Of a DNA stretch of 37,177 nucleotides, positions 2,874-24,150 are shown piece after piece. The translations under genes were made by a program, and so were the position numbers. The notes under the pieces were generated by a model. That model made no database searches. It saw nothing but the letters and a program-made list of their open reading frames with translations, and was not told the origin of the DNA. The DNA is taken from the NCBI GenBank assembly GCA_012515635.1, contig JAAYXZ010000004.1, positions 1-37,177 of the forward strand. The letters run 5' to 3'. This DNA is from Elusimicrobiota bacterium (lineage in GTDB: Bacteria > Ratteibacteria > UBA8468 > B48-G9 > JAFGKM01). The stretch's first letter is position 1, and each line of letters opens with the position of its first letter.

Positions 2874-3263
2874 TTATTCTATCCTTTCAGAATATGTTGC
2901 TGACTTTTGCTCGTTCTCCCACACAGTTACACACTTTACTTTTACAGGATATTTTTTTAATGCGCTCTGCATTTTCTTATATATATATAGGCAAATATTC
3001 TCAGATGTAGGATTTGCTTCTCTGAAAAACAACAGTGTATTTAAGTCGCGGTGGTCTAAAACACTTATAACTTTTTTGAGATGTTCCTTCAAGATAGTGA
3101 AATCTATAAGAAGCCCTTCACTGTCAAGTTCTGCTCCCCACACAACAATCTCCACCTTCCAGTTGTGTCCGTGAACCCTCTCGCATTTACCTTTATAGTT
3201 TTTTAAATGGTGGGCGGAAGAGAAGGAGCCCTGCACCTGAACTTCATATATTCCCTTGTTCAT
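2874..3263 (-). CDS. queD: 6-carboxy-5,6,7,8-tetrahydropterin synthase (PTPS family)
   Basis: 129-aa ORF with the CERVHGHNWKVEI (C-x3-HGH) motif typical of QueD/PTPS. ATGA overlap with the upstream amidase stop. Confidence 0.82.
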   Translation of the reverse strand: MNKGIYEVQVQGSFSSAHHLKNYKGKCERVHGHNWKVEIVVWGAELDSEGLLIDFTILKEHLKKVISVLDHRDLNTLLFFREANPTSENICLYIYKKMQSALKKYPVKVKCVTVWENEQKSATYSERIE

Positions 3264-4372
3264 AAGACATCTCTAAATTTAAGATAATCTAACACCCCGT
3301 TAGCCAACGCCTCTGCTATCGCCTGCCTCACCTCAATATCTCTTAAATTACACTCCATATTAGGATTGCACAAAAAACCTATTTCAGTTAAAACAGCAGG
3401 CATCGGGGTATATTTCAGAACATAAAAACTCCTTTTTTTGGTTCCTCTGTCAGGGGTTAATAACCTCTCTGCAAGACGCTCCTGAACAAAATCGGCAAGT
3501 ATTCTGCTCTCATCCACAGCGCTTGAGGTATTTAACTCTTCAAGCATTCTGGATACCGTGGAGGTCTCTTCGTCCTCTGTGTCCGCTTCTTCCGAATATG
3601 AGACAGCAGGAAGATATACTGCCTCTTCCTTAACTACTGAGTAATATGTTTCAAAACCGTCTGCGTCGGGTCTTCTGTCGCGGGAAGAGTTGGTATGCAC
3701 GCTGAAAAATACATCCGCTTGTATATCCTGCGCCATCTGAACCCGTTCCACCAAAGAGACAGCCACATCCTTCTCTCTTGTCATATAGATTTTCACACCT
3801 GAGTTGTGTCGTGACTCCTTCTTAAGATAGTCCCTTATTCTTCTCGCAATATCAAGGTTCACTTCTTTTTCTCTGAGTCCGTAATGACCAATCGCACCGG
3901 CATCGTTACCCCCATGCCCAGGGTCTATAAGTATAGTAAAGTTTTGGGGTTTAGCGCTTTTAACCGGTTTATTTTCCTTAAAAAACGGCTCTTGTGATAC
4001 ATGAGACGCAGGCGTGATACCAGAGAGGATGTCGTTAAAATTATCTACAGGTATAAATATCTCACCTTCCACCTCTTTCACTGGAACATCCAGCATAAAA
4101 ACCTGCTGTCCAATCATTACAGAGGTACTATTAACCTTAAACTTAATCTCTGTGCCTTGGTATCCTATAAAGACCCTGTCTTCAACATTGCCCCATGAAT
4201 CCTCAGCGCCGATAATTCTAAGTAACCCCTTGAGCGATATATACGCGGTATTCTCTATCAGGTAGGAGGGCAACTTTCTCTCCTTCATCTCTTCGCGTAT
4301 GTTTAAGGCAGATAAATAAAGCGGAAAGAGTAACGTCAACAAGAGAAAAGACCTAATTATTTTTTTTTTCAT
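3260..4372 (-). CDS. N-acetylmuramoyl-L-alanine amidase (Amidase_3) with signal peptide and N-terminal beta-rich targeting domain
   Basis: 370-aa ORF. N-terminal hydrophobic signal (LLLTLLFPLYLSA). ILIDPGHGGNDAGAIG and FFSVHTNS motifs of the zinc amidase_3 family. Confidence 0.85.
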   Translation of the reverse strand: MKKKIIRSFLLLTLLFPLYLSALNIREEMKERKLPSYLIENTAYISLKGLLRIIGAEDSWGNVEDRVFIGYQGTEIKFKVNSTSVMIGQQVFMLDVPVKEVEGEIFIPVDNFNDILSGITPASHVSQEPFFKENKPVKSAKPQNFTILIDPGHGGNDAGAIGHYGLREKEVNLDIARRIRDYLKKESRHNSGVKIYMTREKDVAVSLVERVQMAQDIQADVFFSVHTNSSRDRRPDADGFETYYSVVKEEAVYLPAVSYSEEADTEDEETSTVSRMLEELNTSSAVDESRILADFVQERLAERLLTPDRGTKKRSFYVLKYTPMPAVLTEIGFLCNPNMECNLRDIEVRQAIAEALANGVLDYLKFRDVL

Positions 4373-5437: not shown

Positions 5438-6838
5438 TTGAAAGTTAAATTTTTAGGCGGGACACAAAATGTAACAGGCTCAAAGTTTCTGCTTGAAATA
5501 TCCGGCAGACGGCTTATGATTGACTGCGGATTATTTCAGGAAAGAGAGTTTAAGGACCGCAACTGGAAGCCCTTTCCTATTAATCCTTCATCAATAGATG
5601 CTATCATACTTACCCATGCGCATATAGACCATTGCGGATATCTGCCCAAAATAGTCAGTGATGGCTTCAAAGGAGATATCTTCTGCACCGAACCTACCGC
5701 AGAAATTGTTAAAATAGCGTTGCTTGATGCAGGAAAACTACAGGAAGAGGATGCCTCAAAGAAAAGAGCGCGGCACCTCGCTGAAGGGAGAACGCCGCCC
5801 TATCCTGTTATCCCTTTATATACTGCCGAGGATGCGAAATCCGTATCTCCTTTATTCAAAACATATCCCTATGAACAGCCGTTTGAACCCTTTGATGATG
5901 TCTCCGTATCCTTTCATGATGCAGGCCATATTCTGGGGTCTGCAATGATAAAAATCAAGGTAGGAAAGGAGAACGCAAAAACGCTTATCTTTTCCGGAGA
6001 CATAGGAAGATGGGACAAAGCCATTCTGAAAGACCCGTCTATATTCCAAGAAGCGGATATTGTCTTTGTGGAGTCCACATACGGAAACAAAAACCACGAT
6101 GGAGGATCAGAAGCGGCGGGAGAAGAACTTGCAAACATTATAAATCAAACAGTGCAGAGAAACGGGAATATAATCATCCCGACATTCGCTATAGAACGCG
6201 CACAGGAACTTATTTATTTCTTGAGCAAATTTCTTAAGGACAATGTTATTCCGCATATCCTCGTATTTGTTGACAGTCCTATGGCGATAGATGTTACAGA
6301 AATATTTAACAAATATCCTGAATATCTTGATACCAAGCCGGAGGAACTGATTAAAAAAGGCGCTTCCCCATTTGATTTTCCCCTTTTAAAACTCACGCGC
6401 TCTGTGGATGAATCTAAAAGCATCAACCATATAACCGGCTCTATAGCCGTTATGGCTGGCTCAGGCATGTGCACAGGGGGAAGAATCAAGCACCATCTTA
6501 TAACAAATATATCCCGAGAAGAATCTACAGTGGTCTTTGTGGGATATCAGGCAAAAGGAACTCTTGGGAGACACATACTCAGCAAACCGGAAAGAGTAAG
6601 AATTTTAGGAAGGGAATATCCTGTAAAAGCAGAGATTAGAAATATCAACGGGTTCTCTGCCCATGCAGACAAGTCAGAACTTTTACGATGGCTAAGCGGT
6701 TTCATAACACCGCCTAAAAAAATCTTTGTGATACACGGAGAAGAGGAAGTATCGCAAGAATTTGCTGAAGTTCTCAGGCAAAAAATGCCCGGAAGCGAAA
6801 TAATTATTCCAGAATACCTATCAGAACACAATATTTGA
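5438..6838 (+). CDS. beta-CASP / metallo-beta-lactamase-fold ribonuclease (CPSF73-like, COG1236-type)
   Basis: 466-aa ORF with the HAHIDHCGYLP (HxHxDH) motif and later SGDIG, ESTYG and FSAHAD motifs in beta-CASP order. TTG start preceded by GGGAGAG. Confidence 0.8.
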   Translation: MKVKFLGGTQNVTGSKFLLEISGRRLMIDCGLFQEREFKDRNWKPFPINPSSIDAIILTHAHIDHCGYLPKIVSDGFKGDIFCTEPTAEIVKIALLDAGKLQEEDASKKRARHLAEGRTPPYPVIPLYTAEDAKSVSPLFKTYPYEQPFEPFDDVSVSFHDAGHILGSAMIKIKVGKENAKTLIFSGDIGRWDKAILKDPSIFQEADIVFVESTYGNKNHDGGSEAAGEELANIINQTVQRNGNIIIPTFAIERAQELIYFLSKFLKDNVIPHILVFVDSPMAIDVTEIFNKYPEYLDTKPEELIKKGASPFDFPLLKLTRSVDESKSINHITGSIAVMAGSGMCTGGRIKHHLITNISREESTVVFVGYQAKGTLGRHILSKPERVRILGREYPVKAEIRNINGFSAHADKSELLRWLSGFITPPKKIFVIHGEEEVSQEFAEVLRQKMPGSEIIIPEYLSEHNI

Positions 6839-6866
6839 TAAGAATATCCCCGCCCTATGCTAACCC

Positions 6867-8867
6867 TTAAAATACTATCTGGAAAACTGTTTTAGCAATC
6901 AGGGCTACTGCTATTGAGACCATACCTATCAAGCCCATTCCGCAGGAATATCCTGCAAGTATTATCGGGGTATATCTATTCCAGTTAGGTCCCACTTTTT
7001 TAGCGAAATAAAACCTGCCGAGGAGTGCTCCGATAAACATAGGCAATGCCATATGCGGCAACATAGCAACTCCTCCTATTATCCCGTAAAACAAACCGAT
7101 AGGCGCCTTTAAAAGCAGAAGCAACGAATACAGAGCAACTCCAACAATAGAGGAATTTAAGATATACTTGAATTTTATCGCCTCTATCATCCAACTTCTC
7201 CCTCCATCTAAAGTGCTTGTCGCCCATAACGCCTGAAACATGGCATCCATAGGCCACATCTTCTGAGCGTAAGGATAGGTTGAAGAAGGAATCGGAGACA
7301 TCTTCCATATAATAGACCAAAAAAGAAAACTGCAGAACAACATAATAACCAATGATGTGAACTCCGCTTTATACCAGGAAGAAAACTTTGTTCTTGTCAG
7401 TTCAAGTTGCTTAAACTCCTGGGCTGTCACTCCGTGGTCAAAATACGGGACAGGGGCAAACCATATATCTACTCCTTTATGCCCGCTCAATATAAATGTT
7501 CCTTCCCTAACCATAGGGAAAGATATGCCTCCGGCAACACCTGTGATACCGAACATTCTTGCTGATGTATATGTAAGAAACGGAGTAAGAATAAAACCAA
7601 AAAACACAAACAACACTGTCGGGAAAGAAGGAACAAGAATTTTGCATATCACTATATAAATAATGGTTGAAAGCATCCATATCCCCATAGCGATATATAT
7701 CGGATAATCGCCCCTGCCTTCAGGAAGCTTCTCTTCAATGCGCGCCGGCTGCCCTATCACAACATCTTTCTTCTTTCTTCTGAAGGCCTTAAACATTATC
7801 ACTATACCGATAATAGCGACAATAGCGCCACCCGCTATAGTAGCATTAATCCAAAAATCAAGGTTTGTCGCTACATTAGCCGGTATAACGGTCATACCCG
7901 GCTGCCAGTTTTTTATAATCCCTGCCTTGTAAAGAATAGGGTTGCCGATTGTCCTTGTAAGCACCGCCCCTATAAAAGAACCTGTCACTACCCAGAAAGC
8001 GAGAACAAATCCTGTCAATAATATACCTAACTCTGTCATAAAACCCAACATTGAGGAAGGAAGAATATCTCCCATCTTTGAAGTAAAGTCCACCCATGGT
8101 ATCGGCAAAACCTGAAACGGCTTTGTCATCAACAACCCCGTAACCGTCGGTATTACCACATAAAAAGCCCCGAAAATCACTCCTATCATTGCCGATATAC
8201 TGAACACCCTCCATCTCCAGGTCTCCTGTTTGCCGCTTACTTCTGCAAGAGCGACAGCGCCCTCTGCCGCAACAGAGGCGAGAGGGAAAGGCAGTTTTTC
8301 CTTATCGCTGGTTATCCGAAACATCGTATATCCAAGTGTGAATTTGTTTATTTTGAAAAGGACGTTATGAATTATAAGCAACAGTATTGGTATCAACCAT
8401 ACGCGGCTAAGAAAGGTTCTCTTCAAAAGCGCTTCAGAGTTTGCGGGAGGCATCGCCCATAAAGGCATATGTTCGTGGAGTTTGAATGACTGCGCATAAG
8501 GGGACTGAACAAGATACTGTCTCCAAATCAAATCACTAAATGCCCCGCCCTGCAATGTAAGACCTGCCGTTCCAAAGATAAGCCCTGCGCTTACCAGAGA
8601 TGCGGCAAGCATATATATGATGTAAACCTCCTGCTTCTTCAACTCAATAAAAGACCTTTTTGCTATCTCAACAAGCAGTATCACCGTAACCCATTGGGCG
8701 GCTCCCGCTATGCCGCCGCCTGTCATAAGCCCCAAATATATGGCGCCGGGAAGCATAATAAAACCGATAAAGAGAGCTGCTATTATTGTCCTAACATTAA
8801 ACCCTTCCTGAAACGGCTCCATCCTTCCCGGCTCAAAATGCATCTCCGCTCTTTTTTCTTCCGTCAT
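6867..8867 (-). CDS. 666-aa polytopic membrane protein, OPT-superfamily-like (putative peptide/solute transporter); last gene of the 13990->6867 operon
   Basis: Hydrophobic segments run through the whole length. The N-terminal NVRTIIAALFIGFIMLPGAIYLGLMTGG and the KLPFPLASVAAEGAVALAE segment resemble OPT-family motifs (xLTxRAxxxG...YxGL and LxFPSGTATAE). AAGGAAG SD lies 5 nt upstream. The function call is weak. Confidence 0.5.
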   Translation of the reverse strand: MTEEKRAEMHFEPGRMEPFQEGFNVRTIIAALFIGFIMLPGAIYLGLMTGGGIAGAAQWVTVILLVEIAKRSFIELKKQEVYIIYMLAASLVSAGLIFGTAGLTLQGGAFSDLIWRQYLVQSPYAQSFKLHEHMPLWAMPPANSEALLKRTFLSRVWLIPILLLIIHNVLFKINKFTLGYTMFRITSDKEKLPFPLASVAAEGAVALAEVSGKQETWRWRVFSISAMIGVIFGAFYVVIPTVTGLLMTKPFQVLPIPWVDFTSKMGDILPSSMLGFMTELGILLTGFVLAFWVVTGSFIGAVLTRTIGNPILYKAGIIKNWQPGMTVIPANVATNLDFWINATIAGGAIVAIIGIVIMFKAFRRKKKDVVIGQPARIEEKLPEGRGDYPIYIAMGIWMLSTIIYIVICKILVPSFPTVLFVFFGFILTPFLTYTSARMFGITGVAGGISFPMVREGTFILSGHKGVDIWFAPVPYFDHGVTAQEFKQLELTRTKFSSWYKAEFTSLVIMLFCSFLFWSIIWKMSPIPSSTYPYAQKMWPMDAMFQALWATSTLDGGRSWMIEAIKFKYILNSSIVGVALYSLLLLLKAPIGLFYGIIGGVAMLPHMALPMFIGALLGRFYFAKKVGPNWNRYTPIILAGYSCGMGLIGMVSIAVALIAKTVFQIVF

Positions 8868-8914
8868 TGTTCTTCCTTTGTAAATATTGTTTCGTTGCTC
8901 TCTGCTTGCTTATC

Positions 8915-11900
8915 TTATGCAAGATTCAGGGATGTTTTGCCCTGTGTTGCATAATCCTGTTTTACATCACCGCTTAAGGTTCTCCAGATAAGAAACTGTT
9001 TTCTTATACCATCAATAAATCTTCTGTTAAGACGTTTCCAGTCCGTAGATTCCCCACTGCTTCTTGCCATCAGCAGATTGATGGTATAAAACTCATGCTC
9101 GCCCATCGGCTCCATTACTACGTTGAAATATTGGCTCACACCCAAATCAAAAGGAGCCAGCCAGACCTCTGTCTTTATCGTATATTTATTCTTATCGGAG
9201 GAGAGTGTTTCGTGAGAAAAAGTAGCGCCTTTTGTATAAAAATTTCCTAAAGAGACATCCCGATAAGAATTAAAGTAGTCCGACAAAAATGTGGTAAGAC
9301 CGATAACTTCGGCTTCTGCCACAGTAAAAGGAAACTCAAACTCCCATTTATCCCCTTCCGGTTCCGGAAGTATCCATTTTCTTGTAACATCAGGCACAGC
9401 CATCTGTGCCGCTTTTTTAGCAGGATAAAGAGTTGAGAGTATCACTGTAATAAATATTATAATGGTAGCAAATACAGCCGACAGAGAGGAATAGTTTAAT
9501 ACCAACCCTTTTAACATATCTGTCATCATAAGCACCCTAACCACTACCTGCCCTAAAAGATAACCCGCAACAGCACCCATCACAGCATATACCATTGACT
9601 CTGCAAGAAAAAGAGATGAAATATGAGAAGGGGCAAGACCGACAGCGCTATATGTTCCTATCTCCCTGATTCTCTCATACACCGCACCAAGCATCGTGTT
9701 CAAAACTATCATAGCAGCGATAAGAATGGGGATTATCAAACTGCTTATCCCTGAAAAAGACGTAAGCCCCATACTGCTGTACACAAATGTTTTATCTTTA
9801 AGCCCGGCAAAGACAATAACAGCAAGTTTAGAGATAAATTTTTCTACAAGACCCTTACCGTCAAGGTCCTCATTAAACCTTACAGCGATGGACTGAAGCG
9901 TCCCTTTCATATTCATAAGCGTCTCGTAAGGAACTATAGCAATATTTTCAGATTCCGCATGGACAAAAGATTCTAATTTTACCTGCGATGAAAAAATCTG
10001 CGCAGACCTTGCCAATCTAACCTTTAACAACTCCCTTTCAGGAAGCACTGAAAAGTCCACAGGAGTTACACGCTCATTATCCAGGTCCCTTACTTCATTA
10101 AGCGCCTTCTCATCAAAAATACCGTTAAAAATAAATTCCTTGCCATATATCATTATCTCCGCTCTCCCTATATCCGCATCAGTCAAGCGAAGTTCTGACG
10201 CTGTCTTCTTTGAAAGCAAAACCGTGCTTTCAAAAGGATATTTAAACCATTCTCCCTTTACCACTGCGTCCTTTACAGGGATAAACTCCTGCGGAGAAAA
10301 CCCAAGAAGCCCTGCCGTGTTCGCAACATTTTTCCCATACCTTATCTCAATAGATGTCCTATTGCCTAACTCCTCAAGAATAAACCATGCCCTCGGAACA
10401 ATAACGCCTTGACCGGAAAACTCGCTATCAACATAATCAAACGCTGTGTCCATAAGGGGAGCCCATGAACGGTCCCTAAGCAAAATACCCTGATATGCCG
10501 GCTTATACGGTTGCATAATTTGATTATATTTCATATACGATTTTATTGAAGTGAACGAAAGCACCGTAAAGGTAAGAAGCACCAGTGTAATGGCTGTAAG
10601 TATTGTTCTTGTAGGTCTTCTCTTCATATTGGCAACTCCAAGAGAAAACGCGGTTGCTGTCGCAGTAACTCTGCCCACATCTGTCTCGTACACCCCTGAA
10701 GACGCTGTTTTTAACTGTTTCATCTGCCCTTCAAATTTTGAGGCAATTATTGACAGCACTATCAAAGAAAGCGCAAGAACTATGAAAGAAAGCAGAATGA
10801 CTTCAGGGGCATTGGTCAGTTTAAAGGCGGGGTGAACCATACGCATTATCCAATATATTACTATAAAGATACCGACGGTTCCCGCTATCCGTTGCTCAAG
10901 CTTTGTAAAACTAAACAAAAGCCGCTCTCCGAAAAAGGCAAATGGCAGAAGCAGGATAAAATAGAATATCAGTCCTTTAACAACATCATTGACCGTGTTT
11001 TTTACATCGGGGTATGCGCGAGATTCTACTGCCTGAGATTGCCTTGAATATTTCAAAAAATCATACCACTCTTTTTTCTCTCTCGCTTCTTCCGCTTTTA
11101 GCAGTAATTGACCGGATTCATTCTGAAGTTCTGCAAGACGTTCATTTTTTATTCCATACTGTTCAAAATTCTCTTTTCTGTATGCATCCAGAATTATCAT
11201 ATCCTTTGCTGCCTGATAGGGTGTATTGTGTATCATCGGCATCTTATCCATTTCAAAACCGACACCCTCGGACTCTGTTTTTCCCCCTTTCTCTGAATTC
11301 AAAAGCAAGAGACGCTTCCCTAACGGACCTGCCTGTCCAAGCACCTTAACCCTGATATGCGGTCTTGCGAACACACATCCCAATGGCTCAGAATATGAAC
11401 TCCACCGATAAGGAATAGAGTCAGGGTATTGTAAATAGTACCCATATTCGCTTGGAACGCTATTGGCCATATCAAGAACCTCTATCTTGTCCAGTTGAAC
11501 AAGATACTGCGGGTCTATCAGCCCTGTAAGCGAGATGGTTTTGGAGTTAAACAACACTATCATCCAGTCCTTCTCCTTGTAGTCCATCACCAAATCAACA
11601 GGATACTGTCCCGCTCCGCCTACTCCAAGGTCGGGAGAGAGAACAATTTCACCGCTTTCCCCATCTACACCAAAAGCGGACATTGTTATAACATCTGATA
11701 AAGTGAACGAAGAAAACACTGCCTTTCCGCTCTCGTCAGTCATTCCCACAACAGTATTTCTTACGCCCATTGATGTCTTGTCAAATATCACTACTCTGGG
11801 ATGAATTCTCGGCACAACCAACGCGTTAACTACCGGTTCGCTCGGAATGAAACTCTTAGTAGGGTCAAATGTCACTATCTTGGTTTTAAGGGAATAAAGG

Positions 11901-13303
11901 TTATCCCTTATCTGTCCAAGCTCAATATCAGGGATTAAACCCGGGTCATTGACAGCGTTTTTAAAAATCTCTTTAATAAACCTTGATTGCCTCTCTATAT
12001 TATTAACATTTAGATTCACATAAGTGTCCGCAGGCGTATCCACGCGCCATCTTCCATCGTTAACCGTAACAAAAGAGAGCGCTGCGTTACCTGAAAGAAC
12101 AACCAGTTCTCCATCAGTTCGGATTTTTTCAGGGAAGAATGTTTGCCATATAATTCCTCTTTCAGGGCTTATTCCGTTCACCAGAGATGTCTCAGGATTG
12201 TATCCTAACTTTCTGCTTACCTGCTCTTTGTATTCCATAAACTTTCTGCCATAAGGGGCAAACACCCTCTGAGCATAAAAGTCATAAGAATTATGCCAGA
12301 TTCCCAAACTCTCTGACCCATCAGACAGGTCTAACCCTATAAAAAGTTTGGCATTAACAATATCCTTTTGGGGAATCCTTTTTTTGAAAAGCGGTTCCTG
12401 CCTTAAGTGTCTCTGTATAAAATCATTTATACCCGACATCTTTTGAAAATGCGCAGAGGTAGCAAGAAACATAACCGTCCTTGCAGGAGGGTTCTCTTTC
12501 AAGTGGTCTAAGACATCCAGAAGCACTGATATGCCTGCGGCAGACGACGCACTGCTTGCAATGGCAGGGACAACCCCTATGCCATCATAATATGCCTGTA
12601 ATATAATTATTTCTTCTTTCAGTTCGTTGTTTCTGCCCTCAATATAGCCAAAGATATTATAATCAGGGACGCTCTCCCAGTCCATTCTCCCGAACAGTTG
12701 AACATCTTTCTCATGATAAGCCAGATTAATAATTGTCTGGCTGTTTTTATGAGCATAAAACCGCGGGATATCAACAGGAATATCTACGAATTTCTGTTCC
12801 GCCTGAATACGGGTCAACGCCCCTGTCTCCGTAAAGATAAACGCCTTTACGCCTAACATGGAGAGTGTCTGCCATTTTGTTCCTGAATCAAAATCAAGGA
12901 CAAGGATGCTTCCCTCAATATCCTTACCGGTTAAATTTCTGAGGTCCCCATTCCCTCCATATATCAGTTTCCCTGTAATCCCTTCCGACGGCACTGTTGA
13001 TGTTCTTGCAAGGTTCGGCCAGAGACAATGGATATCTATTTTTGCGTTTTCGGCAACGATATAAGCGTATTTTTCTACAGGAACAACCGATTTGAACTCT
13101 TCTACATGGATGTTTTTAAGACCTGCTGCTCTGAACTTTGATTCTATAAAGTCCGCTGATTGCTTATGTCCTTCTGTTCCGGGCATACGGGAAGAGACAG
13201 AGGAAAAAAACTTGATATACTCGTTGACTCCTTCAGAGTATAGAAAAGATTGAAAAAAGAAGATGATGAAGATAGCAGGCAGATAAAAAAACCGTTTATT
13301 CAT
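8915..13303 (-). CDS. 1462-aa fusion: signal anchor, PA + M28-like (probably non-catalytic) ectodomain, about 350 aa of beta-rich and helical ectodomain, 3 TM, then a MacB/FtsX-type permease unit (TM, periplasmic domain, FtsX 3 TM) and a C-terminal domain of about 170 aa of unknown function
   Basis: N-terminus MNKRFFYLPAIFIIFFFQSFLYS. MPGTEGHKQSADFIESKFRAAGL is an M28-type N-terminal helix. KDIEGSILVLDFDSGTKWQTLSMLGVKAFIF is PA-domain-like. NIFGYIEGR...IIILQAYYDGIGVVPAIASSASSAAGISVLLDV...VMFLATSAHF occupies the M28 core positions. KRRPTRTILTAITLVLLTFTVLSF is a typical FtsX-family TM1. YERIREIGTYSAVGLAPSHISSLFLAESMVYAVMGAVAGYLLG is the FtsX-domain signature. AGGGAG SD. The start overlaps the stop of the TPR gene. 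Confidence 0.7.
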   Translation of the reverse strand: MNKRFFYLPAIFIIFFFQSFLYSEGVNEYIKFFSSVSSRMPGTEGHKQSADFIESKFRAAGLKNIHVEEFKSVVPVEKYAYIVAENAKIDIHCLWPNLARTSTVPSEGITGKLIYGGNGDLRNLTGKDIEGSILVLDFDSGTKWQTLSMLGVKAFIFTETGALTRIQAEQKFVDIPVDIPRFYAHKNSQTIINLAYHEKDVQLFGRMDWESVPDYNIFGYIEGRNNELKEEIIILQAYYDGIGVVPAIASSASSAAGISVLLDVLDHLKENPPARTVMFLATSAHFQKMSGINDFIQRHLRQEPLFKKRIPQKDIVNAKLFIGLDLSDGSESLGIWHNSYDFYAQRVFAPYGRKFMEYKEQVSRKLGYNPETSLVNGISPERGIIWQTFFPEKIRTDGELVVLSGNAALSFVTVNDGRWRVDTPADTYVNLNVNNIERQSRFIKEIFKNAVNDPGLIPDIELGQIRDNLYSLKTKIVTFDPTKSFIPSEPVVNALVVPRIHPRVVIFDKTSMGVRNTVVGMTDESGKAVFSSFTLSDVITMSAFGVDGESGEIVLSPDLGVGGAGQYPVDLVMDYKEKDWMIVLFNSKTISLTGLIDPQYLVQLDKIEVLDMANSVPSEYGYYLQYPDSIPYRWSSYSEPLGCVFARPHIRVKVLGQAGPLGKRLLLLNSEKGGKTESEGVGFEMDKMPMIHNTPYQAAKDMIILDAYRKENFEQYGIKNERLAELQNESGQLLLKAEEAREKKEWYDFLKYSRQSQAVESRAYPDVKNTVNDVVKGLIFYFILLLPFAFFGERLLFSFTKLEQRIAGTVGIFIVIYWIMRMVHPAFKLTNAPEVILLSFIVLALSLIVLSIIASKFEGQMKQLKTASSGVYETDVGRVTATATAFSLGVANMKRRPTRTILTAITLVLLTFTVLSFTSIKSYMKYNQIMQPYKPAYQGILLRDRSWAPLMDTAFDYVDSEFSGQGVIVPRAWFILEELGNRTSIEIRYGKNVANTAGLLGFSPQEFIPVKDAVVKGEWFKYPFESTVLLSKKTASELRLTDADIGRAEIMIYGKEFIFNGIFDEKALNEVRDLDNERVTPVDFSVLPERELLKVRLARSAQIFSSQVKLESFVHAESENIAIVPYETLMNMKGTLQSIAVRFNEDLDGKGLVEKFISKLAVIVFAGLKDKTFVYSSMGLTSFSGISSLIIPILIAAMIVLNTMLGAVYERIREIGTYSAVGLAPSHISSLFLAESMVYAVMGAVAGYLLGQVVVRVLMMTDMLKGLVLNYSSLSAVFATIIIFITVILSTLYPAKKAAQMAVPDVTRKWILPEPEGDKWEFEFPFTVAEAEVIGLTTFLSDYFNSYRDVSLGNFYTKGATFSHETLSSDKNKYTIKTEVWLAPFDLGVSQYFNVVMEPMGEHEFYTINLLMARSSGESTDWKRLNRRFIDGIRKQFLIWRTLSGDVKQDYATQGKTSLNLA

Positions 13304-13814
13304 CTCTTAACTCCCTTAATTTTGTCCACGCCCTTCTTGAACCGGGGTTTACATTCACCTCGCTTACATACTCTCTTTTTGCAGCCAATATATTCCCTTC
13401 CGCTTCATACATCAACCCTTTCAGATAATGGGCATCACGATAGTATTCATTCATCTTTAAGACCCTATCCGCCAACTCCCTTGCTGTAAAAAAATCATCC
13501 TTATAAAAACTTATAAGAGCAAAGTCAAAAGAGAGATTAACATTGTTTGGAAAATAAATCAACCCTGTTTTAACCCATTTTTCTGCCTCATCAAGTTGAT
13601 TTTTTATTATATATGACATTACTATTTTTTCATACGGTTCCGCCGTTTGCCCATACTTTAAGGCCTTTGTCCATACCTCTATTGACTTATCTATTTCACC
13701 TGTGGAGAAATATGTATCGCCCTCTTTTATAAGATTTCGCGCTAAAGAAACATTAGGATTCACAGAACACCCCGACGCAAGAAACACTATTAGAACCAGA
13801 GACAATAATCTCAT
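13296..13814 (-). CDS. TPR-repeat lipoprotein
   Basis: MRLLSLVLIVFLASGC has a lipobox (LASG|C). TPR-like helices follow (IEVWTKALKYGQTAEPYEKI..., YRDAHYLKGLMYEAEGN). I start it at ATG 13814. The longer track ORF adds 52 non-protein-like residues ahead of a perfect signal peptide. Confidence 0.75.
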   Translation of the reverse strand: MRLLSLVLIVFLASGCSVNPNVSLARNLIKEGDTYFSTGEIDKSIEVWTKALKYGQTAEPYEKIVMSYIIKNQLDEAEKWVKTGLIYFPNNVNLSFDFALISFYKDDFFTARELADRVLKMNEYYRDAHYLKGLMYEAEGNILAAKREYVSEVNVNPGSRRAWTKLRELRDE

Positions 13815-13990
13815 TTTGAGATACCCCGTATTCTTTTCCAACGTCTTATAAATATCCATATAAGCAAAACAATGGAGATAGCCATAAGAATTTTGGATAA
13901 GGTTGTTTCTTTGTGTAAAACAGCAGGCCAGAGAGTAAAGATAGAAAGAATTATTGCTAAATCCTCCCAAAAAGGTGTTTTTTTATTCAT
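13811..13990 (-). CDS. 59-aa two-TM microprotein (hypothetical), first gene of the operon
   Basis: MNKKTPFWEDLAIILSIFTLWPAVLHKETTLSKILMAISIVLLIWIFIRRWKRIRGISK has two clear hydrophobic helices and a basic tail. Its TGA stop overlaps the ATG of the TPR lipoprotein gene (ATGA). TATAAT (14004..13999) lies 8 nt upstream of the ATG, and there is no SD. Confidence 0.5.
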   Translation of the reverse strand: MNKKTPFWEDLAIILSIFTLWPAVLHKETTLSKILMAISIVLLIWIFIRRWKRIRGISK

Positions 13991-16702: not shown

Positions 16703-16731
16703 TTGACAGTAAACTTTTATAACGGTATAAT
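16703..16731 (+). promoter_or_regulatory. consensus sigma70 promoter upstream of pal (TTGACA-17-TATAAT)
   Basis: TTGACA at 16703..16708 and TATAAT at 16726..16731. AGGAGG at 16747..16752. ATG at 16757. Confidence 0.6.
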
Positions 16732-16756
16732 TTTGGAAAAGATAACAGGAGGCAAT

Positions 16757-17353
16757 ATGAAACTATTTAGAGTGGCTTTGGTGTGTGTGTTGTTTGGACT
16801 TCTTGCAGGATGTCAGACCGCAAAGAAACAGCATATAGTAGAAAAAGATTCTGCTTCAACTCTTGTAACGCCGGGCGAAGACGCTATTGAAGAAACAACC
16901 GAAGGCAAGGCATCAGAAGAAGATATAGCAAAAGCGATAAAAGATGAGCCCATCCCCGCAACAAGAATCCCGGAAGATAGCCATTTTATAGCGCCTGCTG
17001 AAATTAGTGAAGAGATGGCACAGATATTTAAGAATATCCCCTTTGACTTTGATTCATACGCTATCCAACCCAACGCAAGACCGATTCTCAACACCATTGG
17101 AAAATACCTGTTAGAAAATGCTGAGGTAATAGTCATGATTGAAGGACACTGCGATGAACGCGGAACAAGAGAATATAACCTTGTGCTGGGCGAACAAAGA
17201 GCCCTAAGCGTAAGAAGATTTTTAGTTTCACTGGGCGTTGCATCAGACAGGTTATACACCGTCAGTTATGGGAAGGACAAACCTCTGGATACAGCAAGCA
17301 ATGAAGATGCATGGGCTAAAAACAGAAGGGCAGAGTTCAAGATAGCAAAATAA
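16757..17353 (+). CDS. pal: peptidoglycan-associated lipoprotein (OmpA-like C-terminal domain)
   Basis: MKLFRVALVCVLFGLLAGC contains a lipobox. An acidic linker follows. FDFDSYAIQP...IEGHCDERGTREYNLVLGEQRA...NRRAEFKI is the canonical Pal/OmpA_C motif. The start is set at the internal ATG behind AGGAGG. Confidence 0.88.
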   Translation: MKLFRVALVCVLFGLLAGCQTAKKQHIVEKDSASTLVTPGEDAIEETTEGKASEEDIAKAIKDEPIPATRIPEDSHFIAPAEISEEMAQIFKNIPFDFDSYAIQPNARPILNTIGKYLLENAEVIVMIEGHCDERGTREYNLVLGEQRALSVRRFLVSLGVASDRLYTVSYGKDKPLDTASNEDAWAKNRRAEFKIAK

Positions 17354-17355
17354 AA

Positions 17356-18147
17356 ATGAATAGGTTCATTTTAATAGGTTGCGGATTGCTTTTAGCGCTA
17401 TCCGGATGTATTGCCACACAAACAGATGTGGGCGTTGTCCAGGAAAAGGTCTCTTATGTTGAAGAGGACCTCTATTCTACTACCAAAGCGCTCGTTAAGC
17501 GTATGGATACCATTGAAGAAAACAATAAGAAGAGTTTTTCATCTCTCTCTACAAGGGTGGACAACCTTGAGGCCCAACGCGCCATACTGGCTGACGAGAT
17601 AACGAAGTTAAGCGCTGAAATTAAAGAAGTTTCCGGAAAGATAGATGAACTCAACTATGCCTATAACACGCAGTTAAAGGAAGGGCAGGAGACCGCCCAG
17701 AGCAAAGAATTTGAATTGCGACGCGATATGGAAGGATTGAAAAAAACATATACGGACATTATCACATCCATCTCAACATTGAACCAAAATCTTGCCGCGA
17801 TGCAGAATGATATCTTTACCATTAACAAAGCGCAGATATCTATCGGAGAGGGTCTCAACACAACATCAAATGACATACAGGAATTGACAGATAAACAAAC
17901 CAATCTGGAATCAAAGATAGACGATACCATTCAGGTGTTTCTCAACGAACTCACAAGACAAGAGAGTGAACTCTATTACTTGAAACATCAGGCAGAGGAC
18001 AAAAAACCCAAGACCTATATCGTGAAAAGCGGGGACTCTCTCGGAAAAATTGCGGAGCAATTCAGAACAACAATAAGTGAAATCAAAAAAACCAATAATC
18101 TGAAGAGTGATATTGTGTATATAGGGCAGAAACTCACTATACCTTAA
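17356..18147 (+). CDS. lipoprotein with a long coiled-coil region and a C-terminal LysM domain
   Basis: MNRFILIGCGLLLALSGC contains a lipobox. About 180 aa are heptad-rich (E/K/Q/L-rich). The C-terminal YIVKSGDSLGKIAEQFRTTISEIKKTNNLKSDIVYIGQKLTIP is a LysM motif. It starts 2 nt after the pal stop. Confidence 0.75.
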   Translation: MNRFILIGCGLLLALSGCIATQTDVGVVQEKVSYVEEDLYSTTKALVKRMDTIEENNKKSFSSLSTRVDNLEAQRAILADEITKLSAEIKEVSGKIDELNYAYNTQLKEGQETAQSKEFELRRDMEGLKKTYTDIITSISTLNQNLAAMQNDIFTINKAQISIGEGLNTTSNDIQELTDKQTNLESKIDDTIQVFLNELTRQESELYYLKHQAEDKKPKTYIVKSGDSLGKIAEQFRTTISEIKKTNNLKSDIVYIGQKLTIP

Positions 18148-18267
18148 CAATGCTCTAACCTGCCATATATGTTATCCCCAAAATACAACCATACATAACT
18201 TTACAATAGTGGTGGACAGGTCTTTCCTGAGAATAGCCCTGTGTGGGAAGGAATACAAAAAAAAGAG

Positions 18268-18339
18268 CGCCCCCAGCCGGATTCGAACCGGCCCGCCCAC
18301 CTTGAAAGAGTGGTGACCTATCCACTAGTCGATGGGGGC
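18268..18339 (-). tRNA. tRNA-Glu (anticodon UUC), no encoded CCA
   Basis: Folded by hand. Acceptor GCCCCCA/TGGGGGC. D-arm GACT-AGTGGATA-GGTC. Anticodon arm CCACT-CTTTCAA-GGTGG. T-arm GCCGG-TTCGAAT-CCGGC. Discriminator G. 72 nt. A T-run follows. Confidence 0.85.
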
Positions 18340-18351
18340 ATAAGAAGCTTT

Positions 18352-18381
18352 ATTATATACTCTTTTCACTCCTTCTGTCAA
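18352..18381 (-). promoter_or_regulatory. consensus promoter for tRNA-Glu (TTGACA-18-TATAAT)
   Basis: Minus strand reads TTGACA gaaggagtgaaaagagta TATAAT aaagcttcttat GCCCCC (mature 5' end of the tRNA). Confidence 0.55.
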
Positions 18382-18625
18382 AACCTATGCTCGCTCAAAC
18401 GATTATTTGACAATAATTGAGGGAGAAGCATAAAATAATAGGGACTCTTAAAATTAAACCGCTATATGAATAAAGAGTTCAAAGAGAAGGTTCATCCGTC
18501 TGGCTTACGCATATACATAGGCGGTCACTCTTTCAAACAAAGAGCAAATATTAACAGGCAATAGCAGTGCTGCTATCCTTAAAGGAGACAGGAGTTAAGT
18601 TGGTTGTGTTCAACTTATTATTACT

Positions 18626-19906
18626 ATGTGTTTTTATCTTTTCATCTACAATATTTTGCTTTTATTGTCGCTTTTGTTATCTTTGCCTTTTATATGGAAA
18701 AAGATAAAACCTGATACGGAGTTCCCTTCGGGATTCAAAGAACGGCTTGGGATATACGACAAAACAACGACAGAAAAACTTAAAAAACAGAAAAATATAT
18801 GGATACATACGGTATCCATCGGCGAGTTTCTCTCCATAACACCTCTTATAAAAAAGATACAGGAAGAGTATGAAAACAACATAGTGGTTACCTTTGCCAC
18901 AAAGACAGGCAGACGTGTTGCCAAGCAAAAAATTGGAAATGTTGTATATCTGTTCTTCCCTATAGACCTATATCCTGTGATGAGTAATGCTATAAAAAGA
19001 ATTAACCCTGAACTTATCGTTATCGTAGAGACAGAACTCTGGGCGAACCTTTTACATATAGCGCGCAGACATAAAATACCTGTGGTGTTGATAAACGGCA
19101 GGCTATCTCCTTTCTCCTATTCAAAATATAAAAAATTCAGGTTCTTCTCAAAGAGAGTTCTGCCTTTGTTTTCCTCCATTACAATGAGGTCGGAAAATGA
19201 GGCGGACCAACTTATTTCCTTAGGCGCTGAAAGAAAAAATATACAGGTAGTGGGAAGCATGAAGTTTGACCTTGCTTACGAGATGAGCCAAAGAATCAAC
19301 GCTGATAAGGTAAAAGAATCTCTGGGAATAGAACAAAACAGGGAGATAGTGATATTCGGTTCGCTCCACACAGAAGAGGAAGAGCCAATCATTAATGTTG
19401 CAGAAAAACTGCTGAAACAATTTAAGGATTTATTAGTGGTAATCGTCCCCCGCTACCTTGATAAAACAGGAGTATTTCATATCTTGAACGGCAGAGAACT
19501 GAACTATATACGTAAAAGCGAAATGCCGAGTGATAAACAATATTCCATAATTGTTGTTGATACTTACGGCGATTTGAATAATTTTTATGCTATATCAGAG
19601 TTCGCATTTGTCGGCGGAAGTTTACACAGATGGGGCGGACAGAATCCTATTGAACCTCTCGCCTTCAAAAAAACCGTTCTTTTCGGTCCTTATCATTGGC
19701 ACTTCAAAGAGGAGTGGAGAAAGATAAAAGAGAGCGGGGGAATAGAGGTCTCCGATTATAATGAACTCTATAAAGAGTGTCTCCGTTTGATTAAAGACTC
19801 TGAGGAACGCAGACGGTTAGGAGACGCTGGTTATCAGGCACTCCTTAAAAATACGGGGGCAACAGAGCACAACCTTAAGGTTATGCTCCGATTCATCAGA
19901 CAGTAA
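18626..19906 (+). CDS. waaA: 3-deoxy-D-manno-octulosonic acid (Kdo) transferase
   Basis: 426-aa ORF with an N-terminal membrane anchor, the IWIHTVSIGEF motif (compare IWLHAVSVGE in WaaA) and C-terminal GT-B motifs (FVGGSL...GGQNPIEP). Confidence 0.87.
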   Translation: MCFYLFIYNILLLLSLLLSLPFIWKKIKPDTEFPSGFKERLGIYDKTTTEKLKKQKNIWIHTVSIGEFLSITPLIKKIQEEYENNIVVTFATKTGRRVAKQKIGNVVYLFFPIDLYPVMSNAIKRINPELIVIVETELWANLLHIARRHKIPVVLINGRLSPFSYSKYKKFRFFSKRVLPLFSSITMRSENEADQLISLGAERKNIQVVGSMKFDLAYEMSQRINADKVKESLGIEQNREIVIFGSLHTEEEEPIINVAEKLLKQFKDLLVVIVPRYLDKTGVFHILNGRELNYIRKSEMPSDKQYSIIVVDTYGDLNNFYAISEFAFVGGSLHRWGGQNPIEPLAFKKTVLFGPYHWHFKEEWRKIKESGGIEVSDYNELYKECLRLIKDSEERRRLGDAGYQALLKNTGATEHNLKVMLRFIRQ

Positions 19907-22964: not shown

Positions 22965-23702
22965 TTATCTATTCTCAGAAAGTATAGAGATTAACCAACC
23001 GATACCGATGATAAAAAGCACCAACGCTATTATTTGTGTAGCATAAAGTCCTACAAATGTTAAAACTAAATCGCCTCTTAATATATCCACCACATACCTG
23101 ATAAAGGCGAACCCCAGCAGATAGAAGGAGAACACTATGCCCGGCTTAAGACGTCTCTTAAAAAGTTCTCTTAAAAAAATAAATAACACTATATACAACG
23201 CTGAATAGTATAACTCTGTAGGATGTAATTTATCAGGAGAAAACGGAAACCTCACTCCTGTGAAAAACTCTGTAGGTCTTCCATAGCAACACCCGTTAAA
23301 AAAACATCCGATTCTTCCGATTGCCTGACCTAACGGAGTGGCAAGAGCAATAATATCAAGCATCTCTCTCAGATTAAATCTTTTAATCCTTGAATAGATA
23401 TTAACAAATATCAGAGCGGATATAACCGCACCCTCAATCGCCAGCCCACCGTTTCTTATTCTTATTATGTCAAACGGACGGCGATAATAATATGGAGCAT
23501 GAACAACTATATGCAAAAATCTGCCGCCAATCAACCCCCAGACAATTAACCAGAACAAAAGAGACGAGACAAGTTGCGGTGAATACCCCTGCTTCAGAGA
23601 TTGTCTCTGAAATATAGAGCCGCTCAACAAAACACCCGCCGCCACAAATACCCCATACCAATATATAGCAAAACTACCTATCCGCAGGCACTCCGGATAC
23701 AT
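22965..23702 (-). CDS. lgt: phosphatidylglycerol--prolipoprotein diacylglyceryl transferase
   Basis: IGSFAIYWYGVFVAAGVLL, GGRFLHIV, RNGGLAIEGAVI and GRIGCFFNGCCYGRPT are Lgt signatures. The start is taken at ATG 23702 (MYPECLRIG...), which overlaps the end of lspA. Confidence 0.88.
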   Translation of the reverse strand: MYPECLRIGSFAIYWYGVFVAAGVLLSGSIFQRQSLKQGYSPQLVSSLLFWLIVWGLIGGRFLHIVVHAPYYYRRPFDIIRIRNGGLAIEGAVISALIFVNIYSRIKRFNLREMLDIIALATPLGQAIGRIGCFFNGCCYGRPTEFFTGVRFPFSPDKLHPTELYYSALYIVLFIFLRELFKRRLKPGIVFSFYLLGFAFIRYVVDILRGDLVLTFVGLYATQIIALVLFIIGIGWLISILSENR

Positions 23703-24150
23703 ATCTCCCTCTCTTAAAGTAATGGAAAAATATAATGGACACACCCACAACAATCAGTGTATCCGCAAAATTAAAGACGGGCCAGATATGAAAATTAATA
23801 AAATCAATTACTGCCCCTATCCTGATTCTATCTATAAGGTTTCCTATGATACCGCCTTCTATCAATCCCAGCGCAATAATAATCTGCTTATCCTTCACGT
23901 ATTCTTCAAGATACAGAAAAATCCCGACTGCGATAATGACAGAAGCGGCAATAATAATATTTTTTACGTTCAGATTATTGAGAAAACCGAAGCATATGCC
24001 CTTATTTCTGATAAGCGTAAGTGAAAAGTATCTAAATATAGATAAAGAACCGCTCTCTGATAAGAAACCCGCCACAAGATATTTAGAGAACTGGTCTATA
24101 AAGACGGAAAGAAAAACCGTTAAAAAAAACTGCCTGTGTCTATTTTCCAC
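23674..24150 (-). CDS. lspA: lipoprotein signal peptidase II
   Basis: 158-aa ORF with four TM segments. NKGICFGF, GGIIGNLIDR and VFNFADTLIVVG are LspA catalytic-Asp motifs. GTG start overlaps the upstream stop. Confidence 0.88.
   Translation of the reverse strand: MENRHRQFFLTVFLSVFIDQFSKYLVAGFLSESGSLSIFRYFSLTLIRNKGICFGFLNNLNVKNIIIAASVIIAVGIFLYLEEYVKDKQIIIALGLIEGGIIGNLIDRIRIGAVIDFINFHIWPVFNFADTLIVVGVSIIFFHYFKRGRYVSGVPADR

Follow-up and report, generated by a model that had tools for sequence, protein, structure and literature searches.

The stretch of DNA analyzed here (the window) is 37,177 nucleotides long, has a GC content of ~42%, and spans positions 1 to 37,177 of contig JAAYXZ010000004.1 from the Elusimicrobiota bacterium assembly GCA_012515635.1, placed in the Ratteibacteria by GTDB. 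At 8915..13303, on the minus strand, it holds an open reading frame (ORF) with an ATG start that encodes 1462 amino acids (aa) plus stop, which we call the giant. From the N terminus, the protein consists of a signal peptide or anchor, a PA-M28-like ectodomain, a beta domain, a helical stalk, a block of three transmembrane (TM) helices, an FtsX unit with its periplasmic domain, and a C-terminal domain. The giant is a real gene, since a 98%-identical protein and several hundred full-length homologs exist. The protein database holds one sequence at 98% identity and at least 299 homologs at E≤0.001; 111 homologs are 1400 aa or longer, with a length range of about 1450 to 1630 aa. We confirmed that a PA-M28 ectodomain is fused to a MacB/FtsX-type permease. 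Comparison with relatives further indicates that the ectodomain lacks the canonical di-zinc site of M28 enzymes and that the giant is probably not the orphan permease that a first-pass annotation, made from the DNA letters alone, had taken it to be.

The ectodomain follows a signal peptide or signal anchor (residues 1-23, 13235..13303, minus strand like every other part of the giant), recognized by hydropathy as MNKR plus 18 hydrophobic residues. This segment is the least conserved part of the protein, with a mean column conservation of 29% versus 87% for the first TM helix of the FtsX unit, which fits a signal peptide or plain anchor. Next come the PA and M28-fold pseudo-peptidase (residues 24-465, 11909..13234), with its PA insert at ~100-205; a beta-rich module (466-693, 11225..11908), whose strands at ~470-667 were taken from DSSP of the predicted model and whose fold is without assignment; and a stalk (694-771, 10991..11224), modeled as three long helices entering the membrane. 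Pfam Peptidase_M28 matches residues 216-330 with 23.8 bits against a cut-off of 21.3. A family profile of 25 sequences, compared with the PDB, finds the PA-containing M28 aminopeptidases BSAP/YwaD (E 1.9e-14) and 2ek8 (2.4e-13); lower in the same search are MacB (6e-11), YtrF, LolF, transferrin receptor 1 (TfR; ~6e-6, over the N-terminal and PA region), nicalin (9e-5), and LolC. For residues 24-772, AlphaFold with a 61-row alignment gave a model of high confidence (pLDDT 92.6, pTM 0.92), and a Foldseek search of the PDB with this model places 2ek8, BSAP, PaAP, and 3iib at the top (E 5e-23 to 1e-20), followed by TfR and GCPII/III (1e-19 to 1e-17). As modeled, the M28 alpha/beta fold is present, and the PA-like insert that had been read as retained aligns with it.

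The first-pass annotation had likened this ectodomain to TfR and GCPII. Both do match by profile and by Foldseek, but bacterial PA-M28 aminopeptidases such as BSAP and PaAP are closer. The PA and protease-like domains align with TfR/GCPII (M28B), and a helical segment comes next at 694-771, although an extra beta domain lies in between. TfR, GCPII, and nicalin resemble the giant as membrane-anchored PA and M28 ectodomains, TfR and nicalin being non-catalytic binding modules; they differ in their single-pass anchor, their weaker matches, and the lack of a link to an ATP-binding cassette (ABC) engine, and GCPII is an active enzyme. The bacterial aminopeptidases (BSAP/YwaD, 6hc6; the Aneurinibacillus enzyme, 2ek8; Pseudomonas aeruginosa PaAP, 8acg) give the best profile and fold matches and have the PA insert in the same place. 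However, they are soluble, active di-zinc enzymes, and the giant replaces their counterparts of His97, the Asp117 carboxylate, Glu151, Glu152, and His256 (numbering of Aeromonas aminopeptidase, AAP).

We mapped these positions in three independent alignments (single sequence, family profile, and core-only profile), which agree; the core-only profile aligns the Aeromonas chain 2anp, with His97 and Asp99 in register on counted residue numbers. The core peptide quoted in the first-pass annotation lies at residues 234-291. Across 112 family sequences, the Zn ligand His97 corresponds to Tyr238 in the query (Tyr in 101 members, Phe in 11), and Asp99, which supports His97, to an invariant Asp240. The loop of the bridging ligand Asp117 is one residue shorter and reads Ser253-Ser254; position 253 is Glu in 72 sequences, Thr in 19, Ser in 14, Asp in 5, and Ala and Gly in 1 each. 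His285 stands in place of the general base Glu151 (His 109, Tyr 3), and Phe286 in place of the Zn ligand Glu152 (His 61, Phe 39, Tyr 12). The Zn ligand Asp179 is probably Asp325, by motif position only (Asp 99, Glu 9, Asn 4). The last Zn ligand, His256, is assigned to an invariant Asp422 because “YHTPEDS” of BSAP and “YHTPNDT” of 2ek8 align to “VDTPADT” of the giant. The five ligand columns thus do not show an intact set. The loss of the first His to Tyr and of the GAxD Asp had been seen correctly by eye; the Glu-Glu pair had not, as the aligned residues are His285-Phe286 and the Ser283-Ala284 named earlier sit two residues upstream. Read over the seven positions, the query pattern is YDSHFDD, YDEHHDD is found in 59 of the 112 members, and the canonical set in none; a divergent relative, 30% identical (L093), has YDEHADG. 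By these alignments the canonical di-zinc site is absent from the giant, and its absence from all 112 members and from the divergent relative indicates that the loss is ancient and family-wide.

The residues around the old site (D240, T282, S283, H285, T413, D416, R418, D422-T423-P424, and D426) are among the best conserved of the ectodomain, which suggests that the pocket is under selection, most likely for ligand binding. It could instead be that the M28 scaffold was re-tooled, for example into a hydrolase that is mononuclear or works without metal, His285 being its general base, so that the giant would be an ATP-regulated, membrane-anchored peptidase feeding an OPT-like transporter. The conservation itself (D240, S283, H285, D422, D426, and R418) would fit this, as would the majority clade, which has E253, H286, and D422 at Zn1 ligand positions, and the best PDB match of the core, 2anp, which we take from its entry title to be a functional E151H mutant of the Aeromonas aminopeptidase. 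Yet the query has Ser253/Ser254 and Phe286 there, which are unable to bind metal, all members have Tyr or Phe in place of the first His, and no member has the canonical set. We consider a surviving enzyme unlikely.

In the membrane half, a single FtsX unit is genuine; it is of the MacB/LolC type and has its periplasmic domain inserted between TM1 and TM2. Hydropathy places hydrophobic segments at residues 5-23, three at ~774-857, one at ~900-918, and three at ~1183-1299, and the charged loops fit an outside ectodomain, three TM helices, a cytoplasmic linker with an elbow, FtsX TM1, the periplasmic domain, TM2, a coupling helix, TM3, TM4, and a cytoplasmic C terminus. This is the order proposed in the first pass (anchor, ectodomain of ~750 aa, 3 TM, TM, periplasmic domain, 3 TM), except that the periplasmic domain is ~260 aa long, not 330. 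The linker and amphipathic elbow helix (AFSLGVANMKRRPTRT; residues 861-896, 10616..10723) precede FtsX TM1. The FtsX unit proper (897-1302, 9398..10615) comprises TM1 at 897-920, the periplasmic domain at 921-1180, TM2 at 1183-1206, the coupling helix YERIREIGTY, and TM3 and TM4 up to residue 1301. Its TM2-TM4 part (residues 1189-1301) gives the sole Pfam FtsX match in the giant, at 50.5 bits, and MacB_PCD is recorded by Pfam for many homologs. In the AlphaFold model of residues 755-1462, the periplasmic and C-terminal domains are good. Foldseek with the membrane half finds MacB best (4e-14), along with LolC/LolE of LolCDE, Spr0694-0695, YtrEF, HrtBA, and YbbAP, and the periplasmic domain also matches the isolated MacB periplasmic domain (5c59, 5lj8; E 9e-5 to 8e-4). 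Since Pfam, the family profile, and Foldseek agree on PA-M28 and MacB/FtsX folds in one protein, we regard the fusion of an M28-like pseudo-peptidase to this type of permease as confirmed; the permease call stands on both the Pfam FtsX score and the MacB profile match given above. Within the coupling helix, E1210, R1211, E1214, I1215, and G1216 are invariant in the 25 sequences, and YERIREIG of the giant aligns to TERTKEIG of MacB in the profile alignment. In MacB, the helix between TM2 and TM3 contacts the nucleotide-binding domain (NBD) (PMC5985334).

The three-helix block that precedes this unit (residues 772-860, 10724..10990) has helices at ~774-796, 806-827, and 833-857, with F791, E793, R794, L795, H824, and P825 invariant. 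It is tempting to read it as the end of a first FtsX unit whose periplasmic domain was replaced by the pseudo-peptidase, as the first-pass annotation did in proposing two tandem 4-TM units, because the order “TM, ectodomain, 3 TM” mimics an FtsX unit in topology. However, an hhalign comparison of residues 755-870 with 1170-1305 gives a probability of 0.3% that the block corresponds to FtsX TM2-4, Pfam finds a single FtsX domain, and the score on the ADOP model (TIGR03434), which describes duplicated permeases, is 29.5 bits where the cut-off is 622. By sequence we detect a single FtsX unit, so that the tandem duplication lacks sequence support. ADOP, YbbP, and BceB do resemble the giant as large FtsX-family proteins with more than four TM helices, and ADOP members are presumably named orphans for lacking an adjacent ATPase; the giant differs from ADOP in its score, far below the cut-off, and in its single FtsX unit.

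Which genes accompany the giant was examined by calling and clustering ORFs in 85 loci. Directly downstream, after a 47-nucleotide (nt) gap, lies c1 (6867..8867, minus), a 666-aa OPT-like polytopic membrane protein. Its gene comes next after the giant on the same strand in 54 loci, and 56 loci have it in all. The protein is 71% identical in a locus where the giant has 59% identity and 43% identical in one where the giant has 44%; a PDB sequence search gave no match for it. A second polytopic membrane protein, of 641 aa with DUF6785 and DUF6784, is encoded at 30027..31952 (minus), 16.7 kb from the giant. Its orthologs stand directly upstream of the giant in 30 loci and are present in 40, and the window protein is 43-48% identical to the giant-adjacent ones, where the giants themselves are 44-46% identical. 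Because the orthologs adjoin giants and their identity tracks that of the giants, the window gene is probably a displaced component of the same system. BLAST finds nothing between c1 and the DUF6785 protein, but hhalign aligns them with a probability of 51% (E 1.5e-4), with the first 200 residues in register and a shared E(K/R)L-x-(F/Y)-P motif, so the two may be remote homologs.

Directly upstream of the giant is a TPR lipoprotein gene (13296..13814, minus), whose stop overlaps the giant start by 8 nt. Called mechanically, the ORF spans 13296..13970 from a TTG. The ATG at 13814 is the likely start because it gives a lipoprotein signal (MRLLSLVLIVFLASGC, lipobox LASGC) and a length of 172 aa, in line with the 172-199 aa of most orthologs. 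Of the 21 loci with the TPR gene, 19 have it just upstream of the giant. A promoter and terminator scan of the giant operon gave nothing above shuffled expectation.

None of the ORFs in the window encodes a recognizable engine for the permease. Outside the three-gene locus, Pfam found no ABC_tran domain in any of the 20 ORFs that are 150 aa or longer, and tblastn of the 37-kb window with the ATPase, small FtsX, PqqD, and c26 proteins described below matched only the giant's own FtsX domain. The first pass had noted that no Walker-A-containing gene is adjacent; by these searches the whole window is without an ABC ATPase gene. The picture in relatives is different. Three loci (L021, L045, L057) have an unbroken same-strand run of giant, c1, c26, a PqqD-like gene, a small FtsX gene, and an ABC ATPase gene, and two more (L019, L023) have the same order with one short opposite-strand ORF inside. 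A Desantisbacteria locus (L089) has the full set of DUF6785, giant, c1, c26, PqqD, small FtsX, ABC ATPase, and a GAF/GGDEF gene, and L092 reads giant, c1, PqqD, small FtsX, ABC ATPase, GGDEF. Four Latescibacterota loci (L032, L039, L042, L048) have a solitary ATPase just upstream of DUF6785, giant, and c1, and ATPases of the same group occur in related arrangements in L030 and L047. The small FtsX protein has ~210 aa and four TM helices, lacks a periplasmic domain, and is 27-36% identical to the giant's FtsX domain; c26 (~300 aa) has 16 homologs found and no Pfam or NCBIfam match.

The giant-linked ATPases score best on the LolD, MacB, YbbA, FtsE, and DevA models. Between the two arrangements they are 56-63% identical, versus 29-42% to other ABC ATPases of the same loci, and we consider them, by this measure, a dedicated group. 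They are also unusually conserved: the best 120 matches are 79-98% identical, under names that include Omnitrophica, Desantisbacteria, Calescamantes, and Caldiserica, where the giants of such lineages are 44-60% identical. A metagenome scan with the ATPase profile returned mostly generic MacB-type loci (46-55% identity) and four matches of the system type (62-70%), of which L093 and L095 place the ATPase beside a giant-type gene. The divergent L093 reads DUF6785, giant (1703 aa), c1, small FtsX, ABC ATPase. In L095, the small FtsX and ATPase pair adjoins an FtsX protein of 980 aa (6423..9365) whose N-terminal domain is CarboxypepD_reg-like, not M28, which suggests that the engine may accept different ectodomains. 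In three loci (L086, L090, L091) the module occurs without a giant within 10 kb, so split arrangements exist; in L086, a Planctomycetota contig, the FtsX partner in the c26, PqqD, FtsX, ABC run has 364 aa and a DUF2795 domain, with an unrelated protein of 797 aa encoded after it. In all five loci read that far (L087, L089, L091, L092, L021), the gene after the system ATPase encodes a GAF-GGDEF diguanylate cyclase of 367-404 aa, which hints at a link between the system and cyclic di-GMP.

With a LolD/MacB-type ATPase and a small FtsX in same-strand clusters of orthologous loci from several phyla, the description as an orphan probably does not hold. The first pass had left the energy source between a remote ATPase and the C-terminal domain. 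The operonic ATPases of relatives with their dedicated group, the invariant YERxREIG motif, and the existence of split arrangements together make a cognate ATPase encoded at a distance far more probable than a mechanism without one; for the query genome, we infer the same. Nor does the cognate ATPase in orthologous loci make the giant simply a known ABC exporter, the outcome foreseen earlier for such a case, as the conserved partners are two polytopic membrane proteins.

The C-terminal cytoplasmic domain (residues 1303-1462, 160 aa; 8918..9397) is the part that might stand in for an ATPase. It is predicted as beta-alpha-beta5-alpha-alpha with a pLDDT of ~80, and 59 of its 160 columns are conserved at 95% or more. 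As the first pass had it, the domain is of no known type: searches of Pfam and of PDB sequences gave no match. Foldseek returns weak matches to helix-grip (SRPBCC/Bet v 1) proteins, namely CoxG 2ns9, 3lyd, Ara h 8, and PYL3, with E 0.02-0.05 and TM(target) 0.3-0.44. An exhaustive comparison with 1.84 billion representatives yielded 1421 proteins at E≤1e-3, of which 1030 reach E≤1e-10. Among the best 150 matches, the domain forms the C-terminal end of the long proteins (1450 to ~3050 aa). Other architectures were sought, and the short matches that were read are truncated gene calls of giants. By these searches, the domain is a hallmark confined to the giant family, not a shared module traceable elsewhere. 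A PilZ-like cyclic di-GMP motif was also considered by eye and rejected; the domain has an RxxxR, but neither the second motif nor the order of the motifs fits.

These properties bear on whether the giant is after all a true orphan, without any ABC ATPase, in which the C-terminal domain senses a ligand or otherwise drives an outward conformational change. Most loci lack an ATPase within 10 kb, the domain is as strongly conserved and as confined to the family as just described, and its weak fold matches are to a ligand-binding type. However, the invariant NBD-docking motif of the coupling helix would then lack a reason to persist, ATPases of a dedicated group recur in operons with giants, both across phyla and in the deeply divergent version, and the giants with an adjacent ATPase have the same C-terminal domain. 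We therefore regard a true orphan as quite improbable.

Altogether, we think that the giant is probably the large subunit that receives the force in a split ABC mechanotransmission system of type VII, similar to MacB, LolCDE, and FtsEX, and that its ectodomain is probably a non-catalytic binding module. In this system, the single FtsX unit of the giant would dock a LolD-type ATPase through the conserved TM2-TM3 coupling helix. The second FtsX unit would come from the minimal 4-TM partner of ~210 aa, and the pair would sit under the ATPase dimer. ATP-driven motion of the TM1/TM2 stalk would then pass through the Porter/Sabre-type periplasmic domain to the PA-M28-like, beta, and stalk assembly. 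Because it has no di-zinc site, the ectodomain would serve as a binding or clamping module, not as an aminopeptidase. The two polytopic partners, the OPT-like c1 and the DUF6785/6784 protein, may take up or hand over the ligand, possibly joined by the TPR lipoprotein in the query clade. The ATPase, small FtsX, PqqD-like protein, and GAF-GGDEF cyclase would be encoded elsewhere in the query genome. Our best guess for the ligand, of low confidence and drawn by analogy from the ancestry of the parts (an aminopeptidase-derived pocket, a PA domain, an OPT-like partner, and a PqqD-type peptide-binding partner), is a peptide or peptide-bearing envelope molecule. The helix-grip hint and the envelope-biogenesis neighbors in some loci leave us open to a lipid-linked ligand.

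Several observations weigh against a split type VII system. The window has no ATPase, small FtsX, c26, or PqqD gene, and no such gene lies 10 kb or less from the giant in the majority of the 80 genome loci, among them almost every locus of the query's TPR clade. As the module is also found without a giant nearby, it might act as a transporter in its own right and simply be a frequent neighbor. The model of the membrane half is of low confidence overall (pLDDT 70.6, pTM 0.46), and the stoichiometry of the complex is inferred only. The invariant residues at the former active site could mean new catalytic chemistry, not binding alone. Finally, matches of c1 to the OPT family (PF03169) are marginal, at 25.7, 23.5, and 19.7 bits against a cut-off of 25.8, with E<0.01 in 2 of 18 members. 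In two members, the match is co-linear across profile positions 133-620, but with such scores c1 is not accepted as a clear OPT transporter.

Type VII ABC systems such as MacB, LolCDE, FtsEX, and BceAB use cytoplasmic ATP hydrolysis to do work outside the membrane, and each known example has revealed a different envelope process. The giant shares with MacB, LolCDE, YtrEF, and HrtBA the 4-TM FtsX unit, the large periplasmic domain between TM1 and TM2, the elbow helix, the ER..EIG coupling helix, and, in orthologous operons, a LolD/MacB-type ATPase. It differs in the ~750-aa ectodomain and 3-TM block before the FtsX unit and the 160-aa domain after it, in a likely partner that is a minimal FtsX without a periplasmic domain, in an ATPase gene that is often unlinked, and in two co-conserved polytopic proteins. 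Could the giant nevertheless be an ordinary MacB-type tripartite efflux pump, or an exporter of ribosomally synthesized and post-translationally modified peptides, with an extra ectodomain? MacB is the best structural match of the membrane half, the DarD and DevA exporter models give the ATPase good scores, and the module includes a PqqD-type peptide-binding protein. However, among the recurrent neighbor clusters, most of them unannotated, we recognized no HlyD-type adaptor or TolC-like duct of the kind that MacB systems have, and the conserved partners are without counterpart in MacAB-TolC. The high conservation of the system across phyla, seen in the 79-98% identity of the best 120 ATPase matches, is also unlike sporadic natural-product clusters. 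We give an exporter of this kind very little credence.

The closest conceptual analog, by mechanism, is FtsEX–EnvC (with the PcsB, RipC, and CwlO systems), where an FtsX-type engine acts via a non-catalytic peptidase-fold domain. EnvC is a catalytically dead peptidase-fold activator driven by FtsEX (PMC7668044). The giant could by direct analogy be an ATP-controlled activator of a separate cell-wall hydrolase, with its dead peptidase domain fused to FtsX. The window encodes an Amidase_3 protein (3260..4372), whose cluster (c32) is seen in 5 of the 85 loci, and envelope-biogenesis genes are common around the module in two loci (bamA-skp-lpx in L091; lptFG and mla in L092). Yet the amidase is not a conserved neighbor beyond close relatives, leaving no conserved hydrolase target nearby; the conserved partners are polytopic membrane proteins, not hydrolases; and the periplasmic domain is MacB/LolC-like (Porter/Sabre type), with true FtsX/FtsEX structures much weaker in Foldseek (E 3e-3 to 4e-2). 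The dead peptidase of the giant also has an M28/PA fold, not LytM (M23), and is fused in cis. A hydrolase regulator on the EnvC plan is very unlikely in our judgment.

We can extend the split type VII reading one step further, as a tentative and on balance doubtful proposal. In it, the giant, the minimal FtsX, and the dedicated LolD-type ATPase would form an asymmetric engine that works a non-catalytic PA-M28 “receptor” over c1 and the DUF6785/6784 protein, and the helix-grip-like domain, GAF-GGDEF cyclase, and PqqD-like protein would give ligand or second-messenger control. If true, this would be an unrecognized envelope machine, shared across phyla, that captures, hands over, or extracts a peptide- or lipid-linked molecule under ATP gating, not a variant efflux pump. 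Whatever the fate of this extension, the giant family adds to the type VII systems a cis-fused, ancient pseudo-peptidase ectodomain, a new cytoplasmic domain, and two conserved membrane partners, one of them DUF6785/6784. The surprise of an orphan permease is largely removed, and in its place stands a large, uncharacterized system of several genes, spread across phyla, whose parts can be clearly listed. An ATPase module of its own, at times unlinked, for an apparent orphan gives a concrete set of components for reconstitution, and it cautions that local context alone is insufficient for calling FtsX permeases “orphan.”

The family itself is large. A literature search found no study of the giant family, of DUF6785, or of FtsX-M28 fusions, and no curated family model spans the whole giant. 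Scanning one genome for each species gave matches to the giant at no fewer than 563 species-level loci, and more than 1000 clusters at 50% identity carry the hallmark C-terminal domain, in several mostly uncultivated phyla. By source names these are Omnitrophota, Ratteibacteria, WOR-3, Latescibacterota, Gemmatimonadota, and Armatimonadota, with Desantisbacteria added by later look-ups; among the matches listed, the nearest to the window are unclassified, Omnitrophota-like or Ratteibacteria-like metagenome-assembled genomes, at 69-78% identity. The window is rich in other envelope genes (3260..4372, 16703..19906, 22965..24150), with the Amidase_3 gene, an OmpA-family protein, a LysM protein, a Kdo transferase, and overlapping lgt and lspA. 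Of these, only the amidase recurs near giants, and the richness may be due to chance. In Latescibacterota-type giants (~1580 aa), a probably helical insertion of ~100 residues follows the RHLR motif in the M28 core, near query residue 305; the query clade is without it. Super-giants of 2000-3050 aa (P0262, P0269, and others) carry 1200-1400 extra N-terminal residues, with Big_5 Ig-like domains before the M28-like part.

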